Below are positions 51,301 through 57,300 of a DNA stretch of 64,000 nt, piece after piece (position 1 is the first letter of the stretch; every line of letters begins with the position of its first letter). Origin of the DNA: Pseudomonadota bacterium (lineage in GTDB: Bacteria > Campylobacterota > Campylobacteria > Campylobacterales > Sulfurimonadaceae). The DNA lies in the NCBI GenBank assembly GCA_043797085.1, contig JAZDQA010000010.1:59732-123731 (forward strand). Direction: 5' to 3'. The position numbers were made by a program.

Positions 51301-54300
51301 CTCGATCCAAAGAGAACAAAAAGCGGCTTTCCAATATTGCTGCTCACCACGCGCAGTGGGTCACTCTCAATGAACCTCGTATAAAAATCATCAGTGAAAA
51401 TGAAAGTGAAGTCCATAGTCTTGAGTTCTTATCTACTCCGGAGGGAAAACAACTGGCTCAAATTACCAAAGAGTCTGCTAAAACTTATCAAAGTATTATT
51501 GAAGAAGAACACGATTTGCTAGCCTCTATGAAAAAGAAAAATATCGATACACTCGATTCCAATGCAATGATCATGGAAATCCTCATTTTTATCAGTGCTT
51601 CGATTATGATAGGAATTTTTTTCCTCATTATCGGCAATATTTCTCGTTCAATCGGTCGCCTTGAAACGACTATTAAAGCCATTGCTCATGACCGAGATTT
51701 CACCCAAAATGTCCGAGTCGAAGGGAACGATGAACTTTCTGAAATGGGAAGAAAATTGGGCGAACTTGTCACTATGCTGCGTGAGTCATTTGGAGCTATT
51801 CACATGGCGTCAAACGAAAATCTTTCCGTTTCTGCCCAACTTTCAGCAACAACTCTAAGCATCGGAAAAGCGGCGGAGGAAGAATCACGTATCGTCCGCG
51901 AAACAACGTATGAATCGGATCAAATGAAAGCAGCAATGCAAGCATCTGCGAATGAAGCACAAAGTGTTCGTGATCAAGCAGTCGGTGCGAGAGAAAATCT
52001 CCAAGAAGCACAACGAGCCCTTCACAATACGATTGAACAGCTTTCTATCACCGTAGAGATGGAAGGTGAAATCAATCAACGACTCAATTCTCTTTCCCAA
52101 GAAGCGTCTCAAGTTAAACAAGTTCTCACCGTCATCGCCGATATCGCCGATCAAACCAACCTTCTCGCTCTCAATGCCGCAATCGAAGCAGCCCGAGCAG
52201 GCGAGCACGGTCGTGGATTTGCCGTCGTTGCCGATGAAGTGCGTAAACTCGCTGAACGTACCCAAAAAAGTTTGATCGAAACCAACGCTACCGTCAACGT
52301 CATCGTTCAGTCTATCAACGACATCACCGAACAGATGAACCACAACACCAGCCGTATCGAACAGCTAGTAAGTGCTTCTTCTGCGGTAGACGATCATACA
52401 GCCACTGCTGTGAGCGCACTTGAAGAAACTGTAGAAGCCATCGAAAAACTCTCAGCCGATACATCTGCCAATGCAAAAACAACGGATGCCATTATTATTA
52501 AAATCTCTAAAATTCATGAGCTTTCAGCTTCCAATGCACGAAGTGTCGAAGAGATTGCTGCTGCTGCAGAACATTTGCATAAAATGACTGAACGCCTCAC
52601 GGATCAAGTTTCGGTTTATCGTACCTAGAAAATTCATCCTCTTCTTTTAGCGCTAATAGCGCTATTAGGCTTCCCGTGATAAAATTCCGCTATGATGCAA
52701 ACAATCCCTATTGAAACCTTTTTAGCCTCTTTTGATAAATATGATCTAATTATCGATGCCCGAAGCCCCAATGAATATGGCGAATCTCATATTCCTCACG
52801 CGCGCAATTTTTACGCCCTCAGTGATGAAGAACACACCCAAGTAGGAACTATCTACAAACAAGTCTCCCCGTTTGAAGCACGTCTCAAAGGTGCCTCCTT
52901 CGTCTGTCTCAATGCCGCACGTCACATCCAAGAGCTCTATCCTACCTACAACCCAGGGTCAAAAATCGCGATTTATTGCGCTCGCGGAGGGATGCGTTCT
53001 TCTTCACTTGGAACCATCTTCTCAAGCATCGGCTATCCTATCGAAAGGGTCATCGGTGGCTATAAATCGTACCGAACCTTTATCACAGGGTATCTTGACA
53101 ATCTTCCATCCATTCACTTTTTGACCTTGATGGGGCATACGGGATGCGGTAAAAGCGATCTTCTCCAAGAGTTGACCAATATCATCGATTTGGAAAAAAT
53201 GGCGCATCATTACGGCTCAGTCTTTGGAGATGTCAACGGTGCACAACCCACCCAAAAAGAGTTTCAAAATCGTTTGGTTCACGCGGTTTTGGGATTAGAC
53301 CTCAGGCAGGGGGCTTTTGTGGAAGCTGAAAGCAAACGAATCGGTAAAATCATGCTCCCAAACTCCCTCTATCGTCAAATGGACTCAGGATTGCGCATAG
53401 AGATTACCGCCCCCCTAGAACAACGTGTAACTCGGATTATGCGAATGTACGATCACATGGATGAGAGCTTTTTTATGGAACGAATGGAGCGGATTTCCCC
53501 CTACATCAGCCGTGACGATAAAGCTTCGAGTATCACTGCATTCCTTAACGGTGATTTACCGCGTGTCTCTGAGATATTATTAACCCAATATTACGACAAA
53601 GTGTACAAAGTCACCGTCAAACCCACCATCACCATCCATAATGACAACCCCGCCAACACAGTCGAAATGCTCAAGGAAATACAACGTGAACAACGCTTCT
53701 AAACTCACCAAATTTGTCCGCGCTTCAGGTTGTGCCGCGAAACTCTCCCCTGGGTCGCTGGAAAACGTCACCTGCCATCTGAAATCGTTTCACAAAGATT
53801 TACTGGTAGGATTTGAGGGAAATGAGGACGCTGGGGTTTACCGTATTACGGATGATTTGGCGATGGTGCAGACGGTCGATTTTATCACCCCTGTCGTCGA
53901 TGATCCGTTTATCTACGGGCAAATCGCGGCGGCTAACTCTCTAAGCGATGTCTTTGCCATGGGAGGCGATGCCAAAACCGCCCTCAACCTCGTAGGGTTT
54001 GATGGCAAAAACCACCACACTGAGATTCTCACTGAGATTTTGCGTGGCGGAATGAGCAAAGTGCAAGAGTGCGGTGCGGTCATCATAGGCGGTCATACCA
54101 TCGAAACGCCTGAGATGATTTACGGTCTTTCGTGTACGGGATTCGTCCATCCAGATAAAATTTTGCGCAACAATACCGTTCAGGATGGGGATCTGATTCT
54201 CCTCACTAAACCTTTGGGATTGGGGATTTTAACCACTGCCATCAAAGCCGATTTACTGGATGAAAACACCGTCATCCAAGTCGCCGACACCATGCGCACC

Positions 54301-57300
54301 CTTAACTATAAAGCCTCATTAATCGCACGGGAATTTAATGCTCATGCGTGTACCGATGTGACGGGTTTTGGATTTTTGGGGCATTTGCGCGAAATGAGTG
54401 GGGGTGTAAAAACCATCCAAGTGAATGCTTCGTCTGTCCCATTTTTTCCCGAAGCGATGGGGATGGCAGCGATGGGGATTATCCCTGCGGGAAGCTACGC
54501 CAACCAAGAGTATTTGCAATCGCACGTACATTTCAAGCGTAACATTGGTGCTGATTTGGAGATGATTCTTTTTGATGCACAAACATCAGGGGGACTTTTA
54601 ATCTCCGCAACGCCTCAAAATGCTCAAAAAATGGTAGAACGCTGTTTAAGTGAGGGGATAAACGCCGTCATTGTTGCCGAAGTTATTGCTAAAACCCATA
54701 CCGATATTATTGTAGGATAACCCATGCACCGACGCGAATTCATCAAAAAAACCGCCCTCTCAGGGGCAATTTGTCTTAGCCCTTCTTTTCTAACCGCTTC
54801 GGTGGAGATAAAAAACACGTTGGCACTTTATGACCTCCAATGGAAGTTTGATCTCACCGCTCATGGTGCAAAAGAGTGTGCATTGTGGATTCCTCTTCCC
54901 CGTGATATTTCAGGATTCCAAAGTGTTCTTCAAATCGGTAGTGAAAGTACCTCTAAAAAAAGTTTTCAAACGACTCATAATAATTACGAAAGTGCAACAT
55001 TTTATGCTTACTGGAATAAAAATGCCACAAATAAAACTCTTGATCTATCGATGAAAGTAGCCTTACGCGACTGTCAATGTGACTTTAAACGCACACGAGT
55101 TTGCCCCAATGTTATAGAAGAAGCCAAAGAATTTTTAGCCCCGACAGCCCATATCCCCACAGATGGTGCCGTTGCCAAAGCAGCCAAAAAAATCGTCGCA
55201 AATGAAAAAGACCCTCTTAAAAAAGCCCGAAAAATCTATGACTGGATTATCGTCAACGCTTACCGCGATGAAAATGTTCACGGGTGCGGAGTAGGTAGCC
55301 CCAATGCGATGTTGGCACAACTCGAAAAAGATGGTCGCATGGGAGGAAAATGCCTTGATATGTCTGCACTGTGCGTTGCACTTATGCGTGCATCAGGTAT
55401 CCCTGCTCGCGAAGTGATGGGGATACGTGTCGGTGCTTCACGATTTTCTTCTGCTTTTGGAACAAAAGAGGATATTACCAAATCCCAACACTGCAAGCTA
55501 GAATTTTTTATTGATACTTTAGGCTGGATACCTTGTGACCCTGCCGATATTACCAAGCTGGTACTCAAAGAAAATCTGGAAAAAACCTCTCCCCGCGTCC
55601 GAGAGCTTGCCGATAAATTTTTCGGATTTTGGGAAAACAACTGGATGGCATTTAATCACGCACGCGATTTTGACCTCTATCCTACCAATACTCAAGGCAC
55701 ATTGGATTCGTTTGGCTACCCGTATGCTGAAATAGAGGGTGAATACCTCGATCCCTTTGAACCCTCAGCCTACCAATACAAAATTCTCTCCAAAAAAGTG
55801 ACTTTATGATCCTCGACTGCCGTGATATGGAGTGTCCCCGTCCCGTACTGGAAACCAAAAAAGTATTGGACGCGCTTCCTGAAGATGCCACGCTCGTCCT
55901 AGAGGTAAACACTCTCAGCGGTCGTGAAAACTGCAAACGCTTTGCCCTCTCACAGCAATGCACTTTTACAGAAGAACTCCTGGAAGATGGTGCAACACGA
56001 TTGACCATCACCAAAGGGCTGGGCTATACACCAAATGATGATGAAAACCCGCTGGATACCATGATGCAACAAGAGCGTCGCAGTGCCGTCCTCGTCCTCT
56101 CAGGGGCATTGGTCACGGCATTACTCTCCGCCTCATGCTGTTTGGTTCCGACACTGTTTATGGTGTTTGGAATCTCCTTTGCAGGAGTTATCAATGTTCC
56201 ACAATTGAACAGCTATCGCTGGATTTTCACCGCTGTTGCTGTCGTGATGCTCAGTATCGGTTTTTACCAAATGGTGATTAAAAAACAAATCGAATGCGAT
56301 TGCGAACCGAGTTTAACCTCTAAAATATTAATAACACTTTTTTGGTCACTTTTCCTCTTTAGCCTTGCTGCCCTTTTCTATCCCTATTATGAGGCGTTAC
56401 TATGGGGAGAATAACTTTAGGATTGTTGCTGTTAGCCACTCTCGCCTACTCACGCCAATGGAATCTGCACATAGACGGGATGCACTGCATCGCCTGCACG
56501 TTGGCGGTCAAAAAAGCACTGCTAAGTGTTCACGGTATCCAAGAAGCAAAAGTAAACTTTAAAAATGAAAGTGCTTGGGTAAATACCGAGGATACAGTGA
56601 GTTTAAAAATGATGCAAGATGCTGTGGTGCAAACGGGTTATACGGCGACAATAGCAACCAAAAACTAATACAGCTCAATGTGTATATGTAGTTTTTTACG
56701 CTTTACATACCCTATTTCGACCGCTCTCTTTTGCCTTATACAAAGCCCTGTCCACTCGTCCCACACACTCATGAACACTCTCGTGAGCCATGAATTCACC
56801 CGCACCGATACTAACCGTCACGCTATGCCCTAAACCAAACGAGAACTCCTCTATTTTACGACGAAAACTTTCCGCAACAATCAACGCTGCCTCCGCATTT
56901 GTATGAGGGAAAATCGCGATAAACTCTTCTCCTCCCCAACGTCCAAGTATGTCGGTATCACGAAGATTTTCTTCCATAATGTTTGCTAAAGTCTGTAAAA
57001 CACTATCCCCTGCCTGATGCCCTGCGGTATCGTTAATTACTTTGAAATTATCCACATCAATCATCATCAAAGCACAATGATAATCCGTATATCGATTTAC
57101 CTTTTTTTGCTCTTTTATAAGTATGATATCCGTTTTTTGACGGTTATACAGTCCCGTTAGCTTGTCCGTAATTGAGAGTTCAAGCAAACGTGCGTTGTAG
57201 CGCTTGAGTACAATATATCGCCATGTAAAAGCCAAGAGTCCAATCACAAACACTAATAAAAACTTCCAAACTACTCCACGATCGATCCATGATACCTCTT

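Follow-up and report, generated by a model that had tools for sequence, protein, structure and literature searches.

Uptake of Hg(II) by mer operons relies on MerP, a periplasmic HMA protein with a CxxC motif, and on MerT, a three-helix membrane protein encoded by the adjacent gene, which carries a Cys-Cys pair in helix 1 and further cysteines in a cytoplasmic loop; to our knowledge, the only characterized MerT/MerP systems transport inward. For selenium, YedE/YedF (FdhT/FdhU) is a candidate transporter pair that is linked to SelD and combines a membrane protein with a TusA-type CPxP carrier. In thiosulfate uptake by YeeE/YeeD (TsuA/TsuB), membrane cysteines form a relay whose last member is the CPxP cysteine that a TusA-family protein presents at the cytoplasmic face; according to a published account (PMC11073785), this is the 'fourth cysteine' of the system, and natural single-chain fusions of the two proteins occur. 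Finally, bacterial transglutaminase-like enzymes such as 3isr and the periplasmic domain of TgpA (6g49) combine a beta-sandwich with a Transglut_core domain and have a Cys-His-Asp triad. The locus described here shares features with each of these systems, and we found no published description of it in the literature.

The locus lies in the window, by which we mean the whole 64,000-nucleotide stretch of DNA that was analyzed, and comprises genes for SelU, SelD, a transglutaminase-like cysteine enzyme (TGase), a TusA-MerT fusion, and an HMA protein, arranged as one tightly packed block on the + strand (Table 1). A genome-wide survey's note had placed five ORFs here, assigned them to these families, and listed the motifs RREFIKK for the TGase, CPRP (residue 10) and CC (residues 111-112) for the fusion, and CIAC (residues 29-32) for the HMA protein; the ORF coordinates, the NCBIfam scores of SelU and SelD, the Pfam scores of the other parts (that of MerT by a narrow margin), and the motifs themselves agree with that description. 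Gaps or overlaps between the ORFs are at most 3 nt except for the selU/selD pair, whose nominal 62-nt overlap arises because the first possible selD start was taken.

Table 1. Features of the selU-selD-TGase-fusion-HMA block, with positions counted along the window
Feature	Position	Strand	Evidence
selU (mnmH), tRNA 2-selenouridine synthase, 336 aa	52692..53702	+	NF008750 347 bits (cut-off 241), TIGR03167 307 bits, rhodanese domain
selD, selenide,water dikinase, Cys form, 359 aa from first possible start	53641..54720	+	TIGR00476 353 bits (cut-off 125)
TGase, Tat-exported transglutaminase-like cysteine enzyme, 361 aa	54724..55809	+	PF01841 68 bits
TusA-MerT fusion, 202 aa	55806..56414	+	TusA and MerT Pfam matches
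TusA / YedF-N-like domain of fusion, residues 1-75	55806..56030	+	PF01206 45 bits (cut-off 28.6)
MerT-like membrane domain of fusion, residues 89-202	56070..56414	+	PF02411 33.8 bits (cut-off 32.9)
Secreted HMA (MerP-like) protein, 88 aa	56402..56668	+	PF00403 41.9 bits (cut-off 24.8)

Among 31 genome-contig loci, 28 encode the fusion, and the order of the five genes is retained in 25 of these, the remaining 3 being interrupted by contig ends; the genes flanking the block differ between loci. Contigs from one RNA library matched stretches of selU, of the TGase gene and its junction with the fusion gene, and of the MerT domain with 99% identity or more; because such libraries can contain DNA, this hints only weakly at expression of the block.

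Both SelU and SelD score well above the cut-offs of their equivalog models. SelD contains AIRS and AIRS_C domains and the motif GCAAK, and its TIGR00476 match begins at residue 21; the true selD start is probably downstream of the first possible one. The genome that holds the window (2.40 Mb, 95.9% complete) contains a single SelD match and a single MerT match above cut-off. The survey's statement that this genome has neither SelA nor tRNA-Sec was borne out, with no match to SelA in a profile search and no tRNA-Sec above the gathering score (best 42.8 versus 47). The genome likewise yielded no match to YedE (TIGR04112, the Sulf_transp membrane protein), no YedF besides the TusA domain of the fusion itself, and no MerA above cut-off (best 303 bits versus 454). 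We propose that selenophosphate is used in this genome for tRNA selenouridine via SelU, and in relatives for selenocysteine via SelA/SelB.

The TGase belongs to the Transglut_core superfamily (68.3 bits against PF01841; cut-off, 23) and matched no NCBIfam model. A twin-arginine signal (residues 1-29) is followed by an N-terminal beta-sandwich and the Transglut_core domain, and the best fold matches of the AF2 model (pLDDT 88.2) are 3isr and the TgpA periplasmic domain. In an alignment of 30 homologues, C188 (in a GCG.G loop), C210 (GGKC.D), H256-C257, and D272 are invariant; C210 occupies the nucleophile position, and C210, H256, and D272 make up the Cys-His-Asp triad. Most high-GC homologues lie amid unrelated genes without MerT/HMA neighbors and form one clade of 41 rows, so this family of enzymes extends beyond the selenium system. 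On five metagenome contigs (L142, L159, L176, L192, and L134), sel genes do adjoin TGase homologues, and the high GC content of these contigs probably points to other phyla as their source.

In the fusion, the N-terminal domain exceeds the TusA cut-off, is predicted to be cytoplasmic, and carries the candidate carrier residue Cys10 in its CPRP motif; the CPxP cysteine is retained in 18 of 18 aligned fused forms. Its only TusA-type NCBIfam match is to YedF (TIGR03527), whose N-terminal half it resembles (model positions 1-90). At 46.6 bits against a cut-off of 110, and without the DsrE-like half, the fusion is not itself a YedF, and no TusA or YeeD equivalog matches the domain at E ≤0.01. The model of this domain (pLDDT >90) has a two-layer alpha/beta fold matching 3hz7, YeeD (8k1r), and TusA (3lvj), and superposes on YeeD with an rmsd of 1.2-1.3 Å. 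The MerT-like domain lies barely above the Pfam cut-off and, at 40.8 bits, below the cut-off of 150 for NCBIfam MerT (NF010314). Three helices are predicted (residues 82-121, 131-159, and 170-200); helix 1 contains C111-C112, and the loop joining helices 2 and 3 contains C164xC166. These positions align with the cysteines of a MerT encoded in a merRTPA operon, to which identity is 27%; C111, C112, and C164 do not vary among 29 sequences, and the protein of the window also has C166.

The HMA protein begins with a signal peptide and carries the motif GMHCIAC; the two motif cysteines, C29 and C32, do not vary among 26 homologues, every one of which has a hydrophobic N-terminus. Its match to MerP (TIGR02052), at 45.2 bits, falls short of the 92.55-bit cut-off. 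Both the MerT and the HMA family are associated with Hg and Cu, and their cysteine motifs would also suit soft metals. Complex prediction for TGase residues 30-361 with HMA residues 18-88 gave a score of 0.81, compared to 0.02 for the best control, with at least 94% contact agreement between runs and a partner pLDDT of at least 88. Among solved complexes, 116 of 157 reached the mark, compared to 2 of 215 mismatched pairs, counts that are only roughly valid here because our own alignments were used. HMA residues 28-31, 33-34, and 37 are predicted to contact TGase residues 142-143, 190, and 192, adjoining C188, so in silico the CxxC loop of the HMA protein is predicted to dock on the TGase loop bearing an invariant cysteine. 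We know of no solved TGase-HMA complex, and none was present among the fold matches of the TGase.

Neighborhoods were compiled for 121 of 124 TGase loci, with 8 kb on each side. A MerT-like gene lies within 1.5 kb of the TGase gene in 112 of the 121 and an HMA gene within 2.5 kb in 111; the conserved core is a trio of TGase, MerT-like, and HMA genes, hereafter the module. The survey's note had limited the relay to the MerP-like, MerT-like, and TusA parts; the cysteines of these parts are indeed conserved, but the TGase belongs to the core as well and is no bystander. Similarly, the TusA-MerT fusion that it described is real (Pfam confirms it in 7 other loci, and 32 of the 121, from eight families, are inferred to encode it), but is only one of two common forms of the module.

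The link of the module to selenium genes is well supported. A selD gene lies within 8 kb of the TGase gene in 51 of the 121 loci, which represent 8 of 12 families, 18 of 33 genera, and at least six gene orders, and selA or selB does so in 26; by comparison, a single-copy gene is expected to land in a 17-kb span of a genome of about 2 Mb approximately 1% of the time. These counts exceed those of the survey, which had counted about 39 relatives and raised the possibility of a chance placement in one lineage, and the linkage is far broader than that. The module is in tandem behind selU-selD in family f1, divergent from selD-selA-selB in f10, in tandem before selD-selA-selB in f8, accompanied by YedF and DsrE in f14, and convergent in f4 and f6. 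In another Sulfuricurvum genome, an unfused trio adjoins selB (278 bits; cut-off, 242) and selA (489 bits; cut-off, 268), and the same locus contains a formate dehydrogenase alpha gene split by an in-frame stop. A true YedF (195-206 bits; cut-off, 110) is found next to the module in L092, L094, and L098, and in L078 and L082 a separate gene of 112-114 aa corresponds to its C-terminal half (125-126 bits), these associations extending over several families. A double-cubane reductase (NF040772, 454 bits; cut-off, 350) and its activase also adjoin the module; the Haft preprint gives 955 of 970 double-cubane reductase proteins as coming from SelD-holding assemblies. No nearby sel gene accompanies the module in families f12 (0/20), f23 (0/31), f19 (0/2), and f26 (0/4), and in a Pasteurella multocida record the module lies between apaH and leuS. 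The lone MerA-like match near the module (27% identity) proved to be a dihydrolipoamide-dehydrogenase-like gene adjoining lipoate genes. The survey had also considered that a mercury or copper pair might have come to lie beside selD by chance, but MerR-like and CopA-like genes and true MerA are absent within 8 kb across the 121 loci, where the MerT-like gene was never accompanied by the MerR and MerA partners of a mercury operon.

In an order-wide sample of 401 genomes, 124 contain the TGase and 227 contain SelD. SelD is present in 119 of the 124 TGase-positive genomes and in 108 of the 277 TGase-negative genomes, an association whose Fisher value overstates its significance because related genomes are not independent. 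The five exceptions are G079, G328, G354, and G367, fragmented assemblies of 180-340 contigs each, and G222, in which the TGase match is weak. Within genera, the same 5 of 6 genomes of g12 and the same 15 of 16 of g16 contain both TGase and SelD, while the TGase-positive genomes all fall among the SelD-positive ones in g14 (4 among 5, of 9), g20 (1 among 2, of 9), and g10 (2 among 14, of 22). Neither the module nor YedE is present in 93 of the 227 SelD-holding genomes, and the module is therefore not required for selenium use. Were the module a replacement for YedE, a complementary pattern of the two might be anticipated; no such displacement is seen, since 25 sampled genomes contain both.

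We interpret the trio as a relay that borrows the design of mercury transport to acquire selenium and supply it to SelD, a reading to which we assign a probability of roughly 0.6. This selenium reading, put forward in the survey's note, has gained support in that every computationally testable prediction came out favorably (SelD linkage, co-occurrence, lack of MerR, CopA, and true MerA genes near the module, invariant cysteines, and the YedF-like TusA domain). We infer the cargo, the order of the hand-overs, and the inward direction, the last from the MerT precedent and the cytoplasmic side of TusA. The TGase would capture or release selenium from a periplasmic form, possibly Se(0) or polyselenide, selenotrisulfides, or an organic conjugate, by means of its Cys-His-Asp site, Cys188, and Cys257. 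Selenium might then be transferred to the HMA protein, whose CxxC pair would bind it in a bis-thiolate (S-Se-S) adduct chemically analogous to Hg(SR)2, from there to the Cys-Cys pair located in helix 1 of the MerT-like domain, and onward to the cytoplasmic loop cysteine or cysteines of that domain. In the fused form, Cys10 of the YedF-N/TusA domain would serve as the 'next cysteine', the role played by YeeD for YeeE, and this domain would deliver selenium to SelD for selenophosphate synthesis.

The module could instead handle selenium without importing it for SelD, through export or sequestration of excess selenide, periplasmic detoxification, or delivery to another acceptor. Co-occurrence and linkage with SelD suit any selenium-specific function, the 25 genomes with both module and YedE fit a separate task, and an exporter role was weighed for YedE too by Lin et al. 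2015 (PMC5322559). Such a role nevertheless appears unlikely: the only MerT/MerP systems known to have been characterized move their cargo inward, as is repeated in the Haft preprint, the carrier on the cytoplasmic side is YedF-N/TusA-like and is encoded in an operon with selenide-consuming SelD, and the genome of the window holds no other candidate selenium importer, having no YedE and no YedF beyond the TusA domain of the fusion. Somewhat more doubtful still is a relay for sulfur (persulfide, polysulfide, or thiosulfate), with the selenium link stemming from the need of SelU for 2-thiouridine or from clustering of sulfur and selenium genes. Proteins of the TusA, DsrE, and YeeE/YeeD types carry sulfur, the hosts are sulfur-oxidizing or sulfur-respiring Campylobacterota, and a PhsA-like molybdoenzyme is encoded inside or beside the module in L044/L100 and L096. 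However, near-confinement to SelD-holding genomes and covariation of the gene sets within genera would not be expected of a sulfur relay, the usual neighbors are selD with selU or selA/selB rather than sulfur-oxidation genes, and the TusA domain matches the selenium-linked YedF model and, at E ≤0.01, no TusA or YeeD equivalog. A MerT/MerP-type pair for the uptake or buffering of soft metals (Hg, Cu, Ag, or Cd), with selD adjacency functionally meaningless, would account for the Pfam MerT/HMA matches and for cysteine motifs like those of mercury and copper proteins, and NCBIfam classes MerT/CopZ-like and UxxU metal-binding selenoproteins as metal proteins, but this is very improbable given the absence of nearby MerR, P-type ATPase, and true MerA genes in the 121 loci and of MerA above cut-off in the genome, the recurrence of sel linkage in 8 families with varied gene orders, the tracking of SelD, the adjoining YedF, double-cubane reductase, and selA/selB genes, and the harm that mercury import without a reductase would be expected to do.

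The trio, which follows selenium genes through many bacterial families, offers a testable candidate for the dedicated route of selenium uptake that has long been sought in bacteria, and it departs from each of the known systems in definable ways. Identity to MerT and MerP is only 27-36%, the curated cut-offs for both are not reached, and the module differs from them in its constant Tat-exported TGase-like partner, its frequent TusA fusion, its tie to SelD, and its proposed cargo, selenium rather than mercury. Compared to YedE/YedF, the membrane part is a three-helix MerT-like domain instead of Sulf_transp, there are two additional periplasmic components, and the fusion does not have the DsrE-like C-terminal domain of YedF with its CGxC motif. 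The membrane fold is unrelated to that of YeeE, TusA is N-terminal in the fusion, and the neighbors are selenium genes rather than genes of sulfur assimilation. In contrast with 3isr and TgpA, the TGase represents a separate Tat-exported family with two additional invariant cysteines, C188 and C257, has a gene in translational contact with the one for the MerT-like protein, and would, by prediction, dock with the HMA protein.

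The block is made up of five plus-strand open reading frames lying head to tail, for tRNA 2-selenouridine synthase (SelU), selenophosphate-making SelD, a Tat-exported transglutaminase-like protein, a TusA-MerT fusion and a secreted MerP-like (HMA) protein. At its last three junctions the block has a 3-nt gap (selD/transglutaminase), a 4-nt overlap of ATGA (transglutaminase/fusion) and a 13-nt overlap (fusion/HMA). A methyl-accepting chemotaxis protein gene lies upstream, and a convergent GGDEF gene closes the block at 56696. The earliest possible start of selD produces a 62-nt overlap with selU (53641-53702), and the true start is probably further downstream, since the SelD model match begins only at residue 21. 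Promoter and terminator scans of 52300-57000 returned chance-level counts (7 vs 7.3 and 7 vs 5.0) and are uninformative on an operon either way.

Coordinates of the five genes of the block within the window
Feature	Position	Strand	Basis
selU	52692-53702	+	ORF and family scan
selD	53641-54720	+	ORF and family scan
Transglutaminase-like gene	54724-55809	+	ORF; Transglut_core
TusA-MerT fusion, 202 codons	55806-56414	+	ORF; TusA residues 2-70, MerT 95-195
HMA gene, 88 codons	56402-56668	+	ORF; HMA domain after hydrophobic N-terminus

Family scans bore out the labels that the genome-wide survey's note had attached to all five genes. SelU and SelD score far above their equivalog cut-offs, while the transglutaminase-like protein combines a Transglut_core domain with an RREFIKK twin-arginine N-terminus and matches none of the NCBIfam models. 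The fusion and the HMA protein fall below the curated NCBIfam cut-offs for MerT, MerP and YedF, and the Pfam MerT cut-off is barely exceeded; among NCBIfam TusA-type models, the fusion matches only that of selenium-linked YedF, via its N-terminal half. The genome (2.40 Mb assembly, 95.9% complete), whose nearest protein relatives carry Sulfuricurvum-like names, holds one MerT-type gene and one SelD, with no YedE, no SelA, no MerA above cut-off, no tRNA-Sec above the gathering score, and no YedF besides the fusion's TusA domain. Because SelA and such a tRNA-Sec are both missing from it, selenium should here serve tRNA selenouridine, as the same note had proposed. A hint that the block is expressed comes from one groundwater RNA library, some of whose contigs match parts of selU, the transglutaminase gene, the transglutaminase/fusion junction and the MerT domain at 99% identity or more; it is a weak one, because DNA can also occur in such libraries. 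Two other RNA runs (X21 and X22) gave no match to the stretch.

A scan of close relatives, with one genome per species, yielded 31 loci. The order selU-selD-transglutaminase-fusion(-HMA) is present in 25 of 28 fused-form loci, the remaining three being truncated by contig ends, and the genes flanking the block vary from locus to locus. The MerT-like gene is unfused in three loci. One, from another Sulfuricurvum, adjoins selB, selA and a formate dehydrogenase alpha gene that an in-frame stop divides in two; the second has a PhsA-like molybdoenzyme between the transglutaminase and MerT-like genes; the third follows genes for a double-cubane-type reductase and its activase as well as ExbB/ExbD/TonB-like genes. 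As the unfused MerT-like gene is still sandwiched between transglutaminase and HMA genes, the conserved core is this trio, not the fusion. A word-index search returning only close Sulfuricurvum/Sulfurimonas-type relatives had suggested that the fusion was genus-limited, which genome searches overturned. Single-chain TusA-MerT fusions were confirmed by Pfam in seven further loci, and a TusA domain lies directly downstream of the transglutaminase gene in 32 of 121 loci from eight families.

We surveyed 401 genomes sampled evenly from the Campylobacterales, counting the transglutaminase at E <= 1e-10. It was found in 124 genomes, SelD above cut-off in 227 and YedE, of the previously proposed selenium transporter pair YedE/YedF, in 40. 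SelD is present in 119 of the 124 transglutaminase-holders compared to 108 of the 277 non-holders, so that about half of the sampled SelD-holders (119/227) carry the transglutaminase. Four of the five transglutaminase-holders without SelD are assemblies of 180-340 contigs (one, G354, with YedE), and the fifth is a weak transglutaminase match. Since related genomes are not independent in these counts, more weight was given to variation within genera: both genes occur in the same five of six genomes of genus g12 and the same 15 of 16 of g16, and in g14, g20, g10 and g1 the transglutaminase is confined to SelD-holders. Displacement of YedE by the module, or complementarity between them, was rejected, as 25 of the 40 YedE genomes also hold the transglutaminase; 93 SelD-holders have neither.

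Neighborhoods were then defined as 8 kb on each side of the transglutaminase gene in 121 of the 124 genomes, leaving out three weak matches, and searched using several queries for each family. A close MerT-like gene is missing from nine loci, namely three cut contigs, three weak paralogues (family f26), one molybdoenzyme insertion and two real absences. The chance expectation for a single-copy gene to fall within such a span is about 1%, and selD was found near the transglutaminase in 8 of 12 families and 18 of 33 genera. The module and selD are arranged in tandem, divergently or convergently depending on the family, which indicates that their linkage has been kept or re-formed through rearrangements. 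We consider the selenium link of the trio well supported and very probably real. Within 8 kb, MerR-like genes and P-type ATPases were absent from all 121 loci, and the sole MerA-like match proved to be a dihydrolipoamide-dehydrogenase-like gene adjoining lipoate genes.

Genes found near the transglutaminase gene in 121 Campylobacterales loci (f numbers denote families)
Gene and distance	Loci
MerT-like gene, <=1.5 kb	112/121
HMA gene, <=2.5 kb	111/121
selD, <=8 kb	51/121
selA or selB, <=8 kb	26/121
selD, <=8 kb, f1	3/4
selD, <=8 kb, f4	1/2
selD, <=8 kb, f6	5/7
selD, <=8 kb, f8	3/4
selD, <=8 kb, f10	26/27
selD, <=8 kb, f11	5/8
selD, <=8 kb, f14	7/8
selD, <=8 kb, f16	1/4
selD, <=8 kb, f12	0/20
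selD, <=8 kb, f23	0/31
selD, <=8 kb, f19	0/2
selD, <=8 kb, f26	0/4

Several other genes recur in these neighborhoods. True YedF is found beside the module (195-206 bits, cut-off 110), and a DsrE protein of 118 aa is encoded between HMA and selD. In f10 the C-terminal half of YedF is encoded as a separate gene beside the module; the stand-alone genes of 112-114 aa at L078 9319-9663 and L082 7431-7769 correspond only to this DsrE-like half (model 83-193, above cut-off), as if YedF were split between partners, its N-terminal half being fused to the MerT-like protein in other families. Also recurrent are the double-cubane-cluster reductase NF040772 (454 bits in L078) and its BcrAD-type activase, which lie between selD and the module in L078 9699-11782, L082 5309-7394, L094, L111 and L043 2716-4847. 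Of this reductase family, only a statistical link to SelD is known: passages of a preprint by Haft place 955 of 970 high-scoring double-cubane proteins in SelD-holding assemblies, and also mention a small set of MerT-family selenoproteins. A periplasmic-binding-protein, histidine kinase and response regulator set occurs in 26 of 121 loci, including 25 of 27 in f10; in L076, L078, L079, L082, L109 and others, Peripla_BP_6, kinase and regulator directly adjoin the module, for which they may act in sensing or regulation. In L044 5482-8028 (= L100) and L096 11371-13899, a PhsA-like molybdopterin oxidoreductase with a Tat signal, which scores below cut-off on the PhsA model (350 bits), separates the transglutaminase gene from the MerT-like gene or adjoins selD; it may reduce the cargo in the periplasm. 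One Campylobacteraceae-type genome has a tandem HMA gene pair after the MerT-like gene (L084 9399-9955), and a gene for a Methyltransf_9 (DUF1698) methyltransferase is found upstream of the transglutaminase gene in f12 and in L103/L183.

Outside the order, the transglutaminase alignment was used to scan metagenomes; of 592 confirmed loci, 80 were kept. Low-GC contigs repeated the module and its sel neighbors. Those of 55-71% GC (L139-L195) mostly carry a transglutaminase homologue among unrelated genes, without MerT or HMA, and these high-GC homologues form one clade (41 of 187 rows; FastTree, 98 SH-like support) in a tree rooted at the midpoint for drawing, so that it is not used to tell gains from losses. 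The transglutaminase gene still has sel neighbors on five contigs of 55-68% GC: L142 (selA, selB and selD), L159, L176, L192 and L134. On several high-GC contigs, among them L147 and L155, genes for an MgtC/DUF4010 membrane protein and for an Abhydrolase_10 protein flank the homologue. In the gammaproteobacterium Pasteurella multocida (NZ_CP113523.1; L276 7911-9657), the trio annotated as transglutaminase family, MerT family and HMA lies between apaH and leuS, with no sel genes within 9 kb; this sequence is labelled a plasmid, yet its housekeeping genes include his, leuS and secA. A protein atlas search with the transglutaminase returned Transglut_core clusters of Pseudomonadota and Campylobacterota only, and no functional lead.

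An alignment of 30 transglutaminase homologues revealed conservation of the twin-arginine motif, C188 (GCG.G), C210 (GGKC.D; the transglutaminase nucleophile position), H256-C257 and D272. The AF2 model (pLDDT 88.2) combines a beta-sandwich with a transglutaminase core, and its fold most resembles those of 3isr, a putative cysteine protease, and the periplasmic domain of TgpA. Tat export may keep the protein's free cysteines from oxidative folding. For residues 30-361 with HMA residues 18-88, complex prediction gave a score of 0.81, against 0.02 for the best control, with at least 94% contact agreement between runs and a partner pLDDT of at least 88; solved complexes reached the mark for this score in 116 of 157 cases and mismatched pairs in 2 of 215, counts that are a rough guide only, as our own alignments were used. 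The predicted interface places the HMA CxxC loop (28-34) against transglutaminase residues 142-143 and 190-192, beside C188, which supports rather than shows binding. In genome G245, one homologue (locus L206, also numbered L064; G245:C78, minus strand, codon ~2422) has an in-frame TGA at the C188 codon (G*G.GD), its frame being otherwise open and conserved. The RNA downstream of it did not fold better than shuffled sequence (z 0.93), and neither a SECIS-like fold nor selA was found in this 79% complete genome; the TGA could represent a selenocysteine form, an error or a pseudogene.

The MerT-like domain keeps C111, C112 and C164 in 29 sequences, and a second loop cysteine in most; the positions of these cysteines coincide with those in a MerT encoded by a merRTPA operon (27% identity). 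The fusion model contains a confident TusA fold (1-70), three long helices and a flexible cysteine loop. Its TusA part superposes on a SirA-like protein, YeeD of the YeeE-YeeD complex and E. coli TusA, and a sequence search of solved structures with the whole fusion gave a single match (3hz7, E 0.1). The TusA domain and loop cysteines would face the cytoplasm, judging by basic residues before helix 1 and in the loop between helices 2 and 3, a placement based on the positive-inside rule and the MerT model. All HMA proteins have a hydrophobic N-terminus, and C29 and C32 are invariant.

Based on the data presented here, we propose a dedicated, probably high-affinity selenium acquisition system of new build, to which we assign a probability of roughly 0.5. 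The Tat-exported transglutaminase would load selenium onto the MerP-like carrier, selenium would cross the membrane as a bis-thiolate adduct on the MerT-like cysteine relay, and the YedF-N/TusA domain would pass it to SelD, the thiol hand-over chain running from the transglutaminase to the HMA CxxC, the MerT-like cysteine pair, the loop cysteine, the TusA cysteine and SelD. An import relay is the best reading of the mechanism and moderately favored, with substrate form, order of steps and direction put forward as proposals. Should the acquisition reading hold, the mercury uptake relay and the selenium system would be two uses of one thiol-relay design, and orphan MerT/MerP-like pairs with a transglutaminase gene, such as that of Pasteurella, would be selenium rather than mercury genes. 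Selenotrisulfide, with selenium between two thiolates, is the chemical counterpart of Hg(SR)2, and reuse of the mercury design is therefore plausible.

Searches of the main text of openly accessible papers gave, by title or abstract, no account of a transglutaminase/MerT-like/HMA system, and neither mercury-transport nor transglutaminase genes turned up in term searches of the main texts of PMC2432076 and PMC4607533. Passages of PMC5322559 include one transglutaminase-like enzyme, uncommented, among the STRING links of YedF, and treat YedE/YedF as still a genomic candidate; according to PMC9312934, no high-affinity selenium transporter is known. The module offers a second candidate route beside YedE/YedF, with defined parts, and because every proposed hand-over residue is named, the pathway is directly testable. 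If true, it would provide the first function for a Tat-exported transglutaminase-like family, call for the reannotation of many genes now listed as 'mercuric transporter MerT family', and imply that a heavy-metal relay design is able to carry a chalcogen. On the import-relay reading, the module would be a new form of the known thiol-relay transporters, and YeeE-YeeD, for which natural fusions exist, is a worked precedent, being a membrane cysteine relay that likewise ends on a TusA-family cysteine, as described in passages of PMC11073785.
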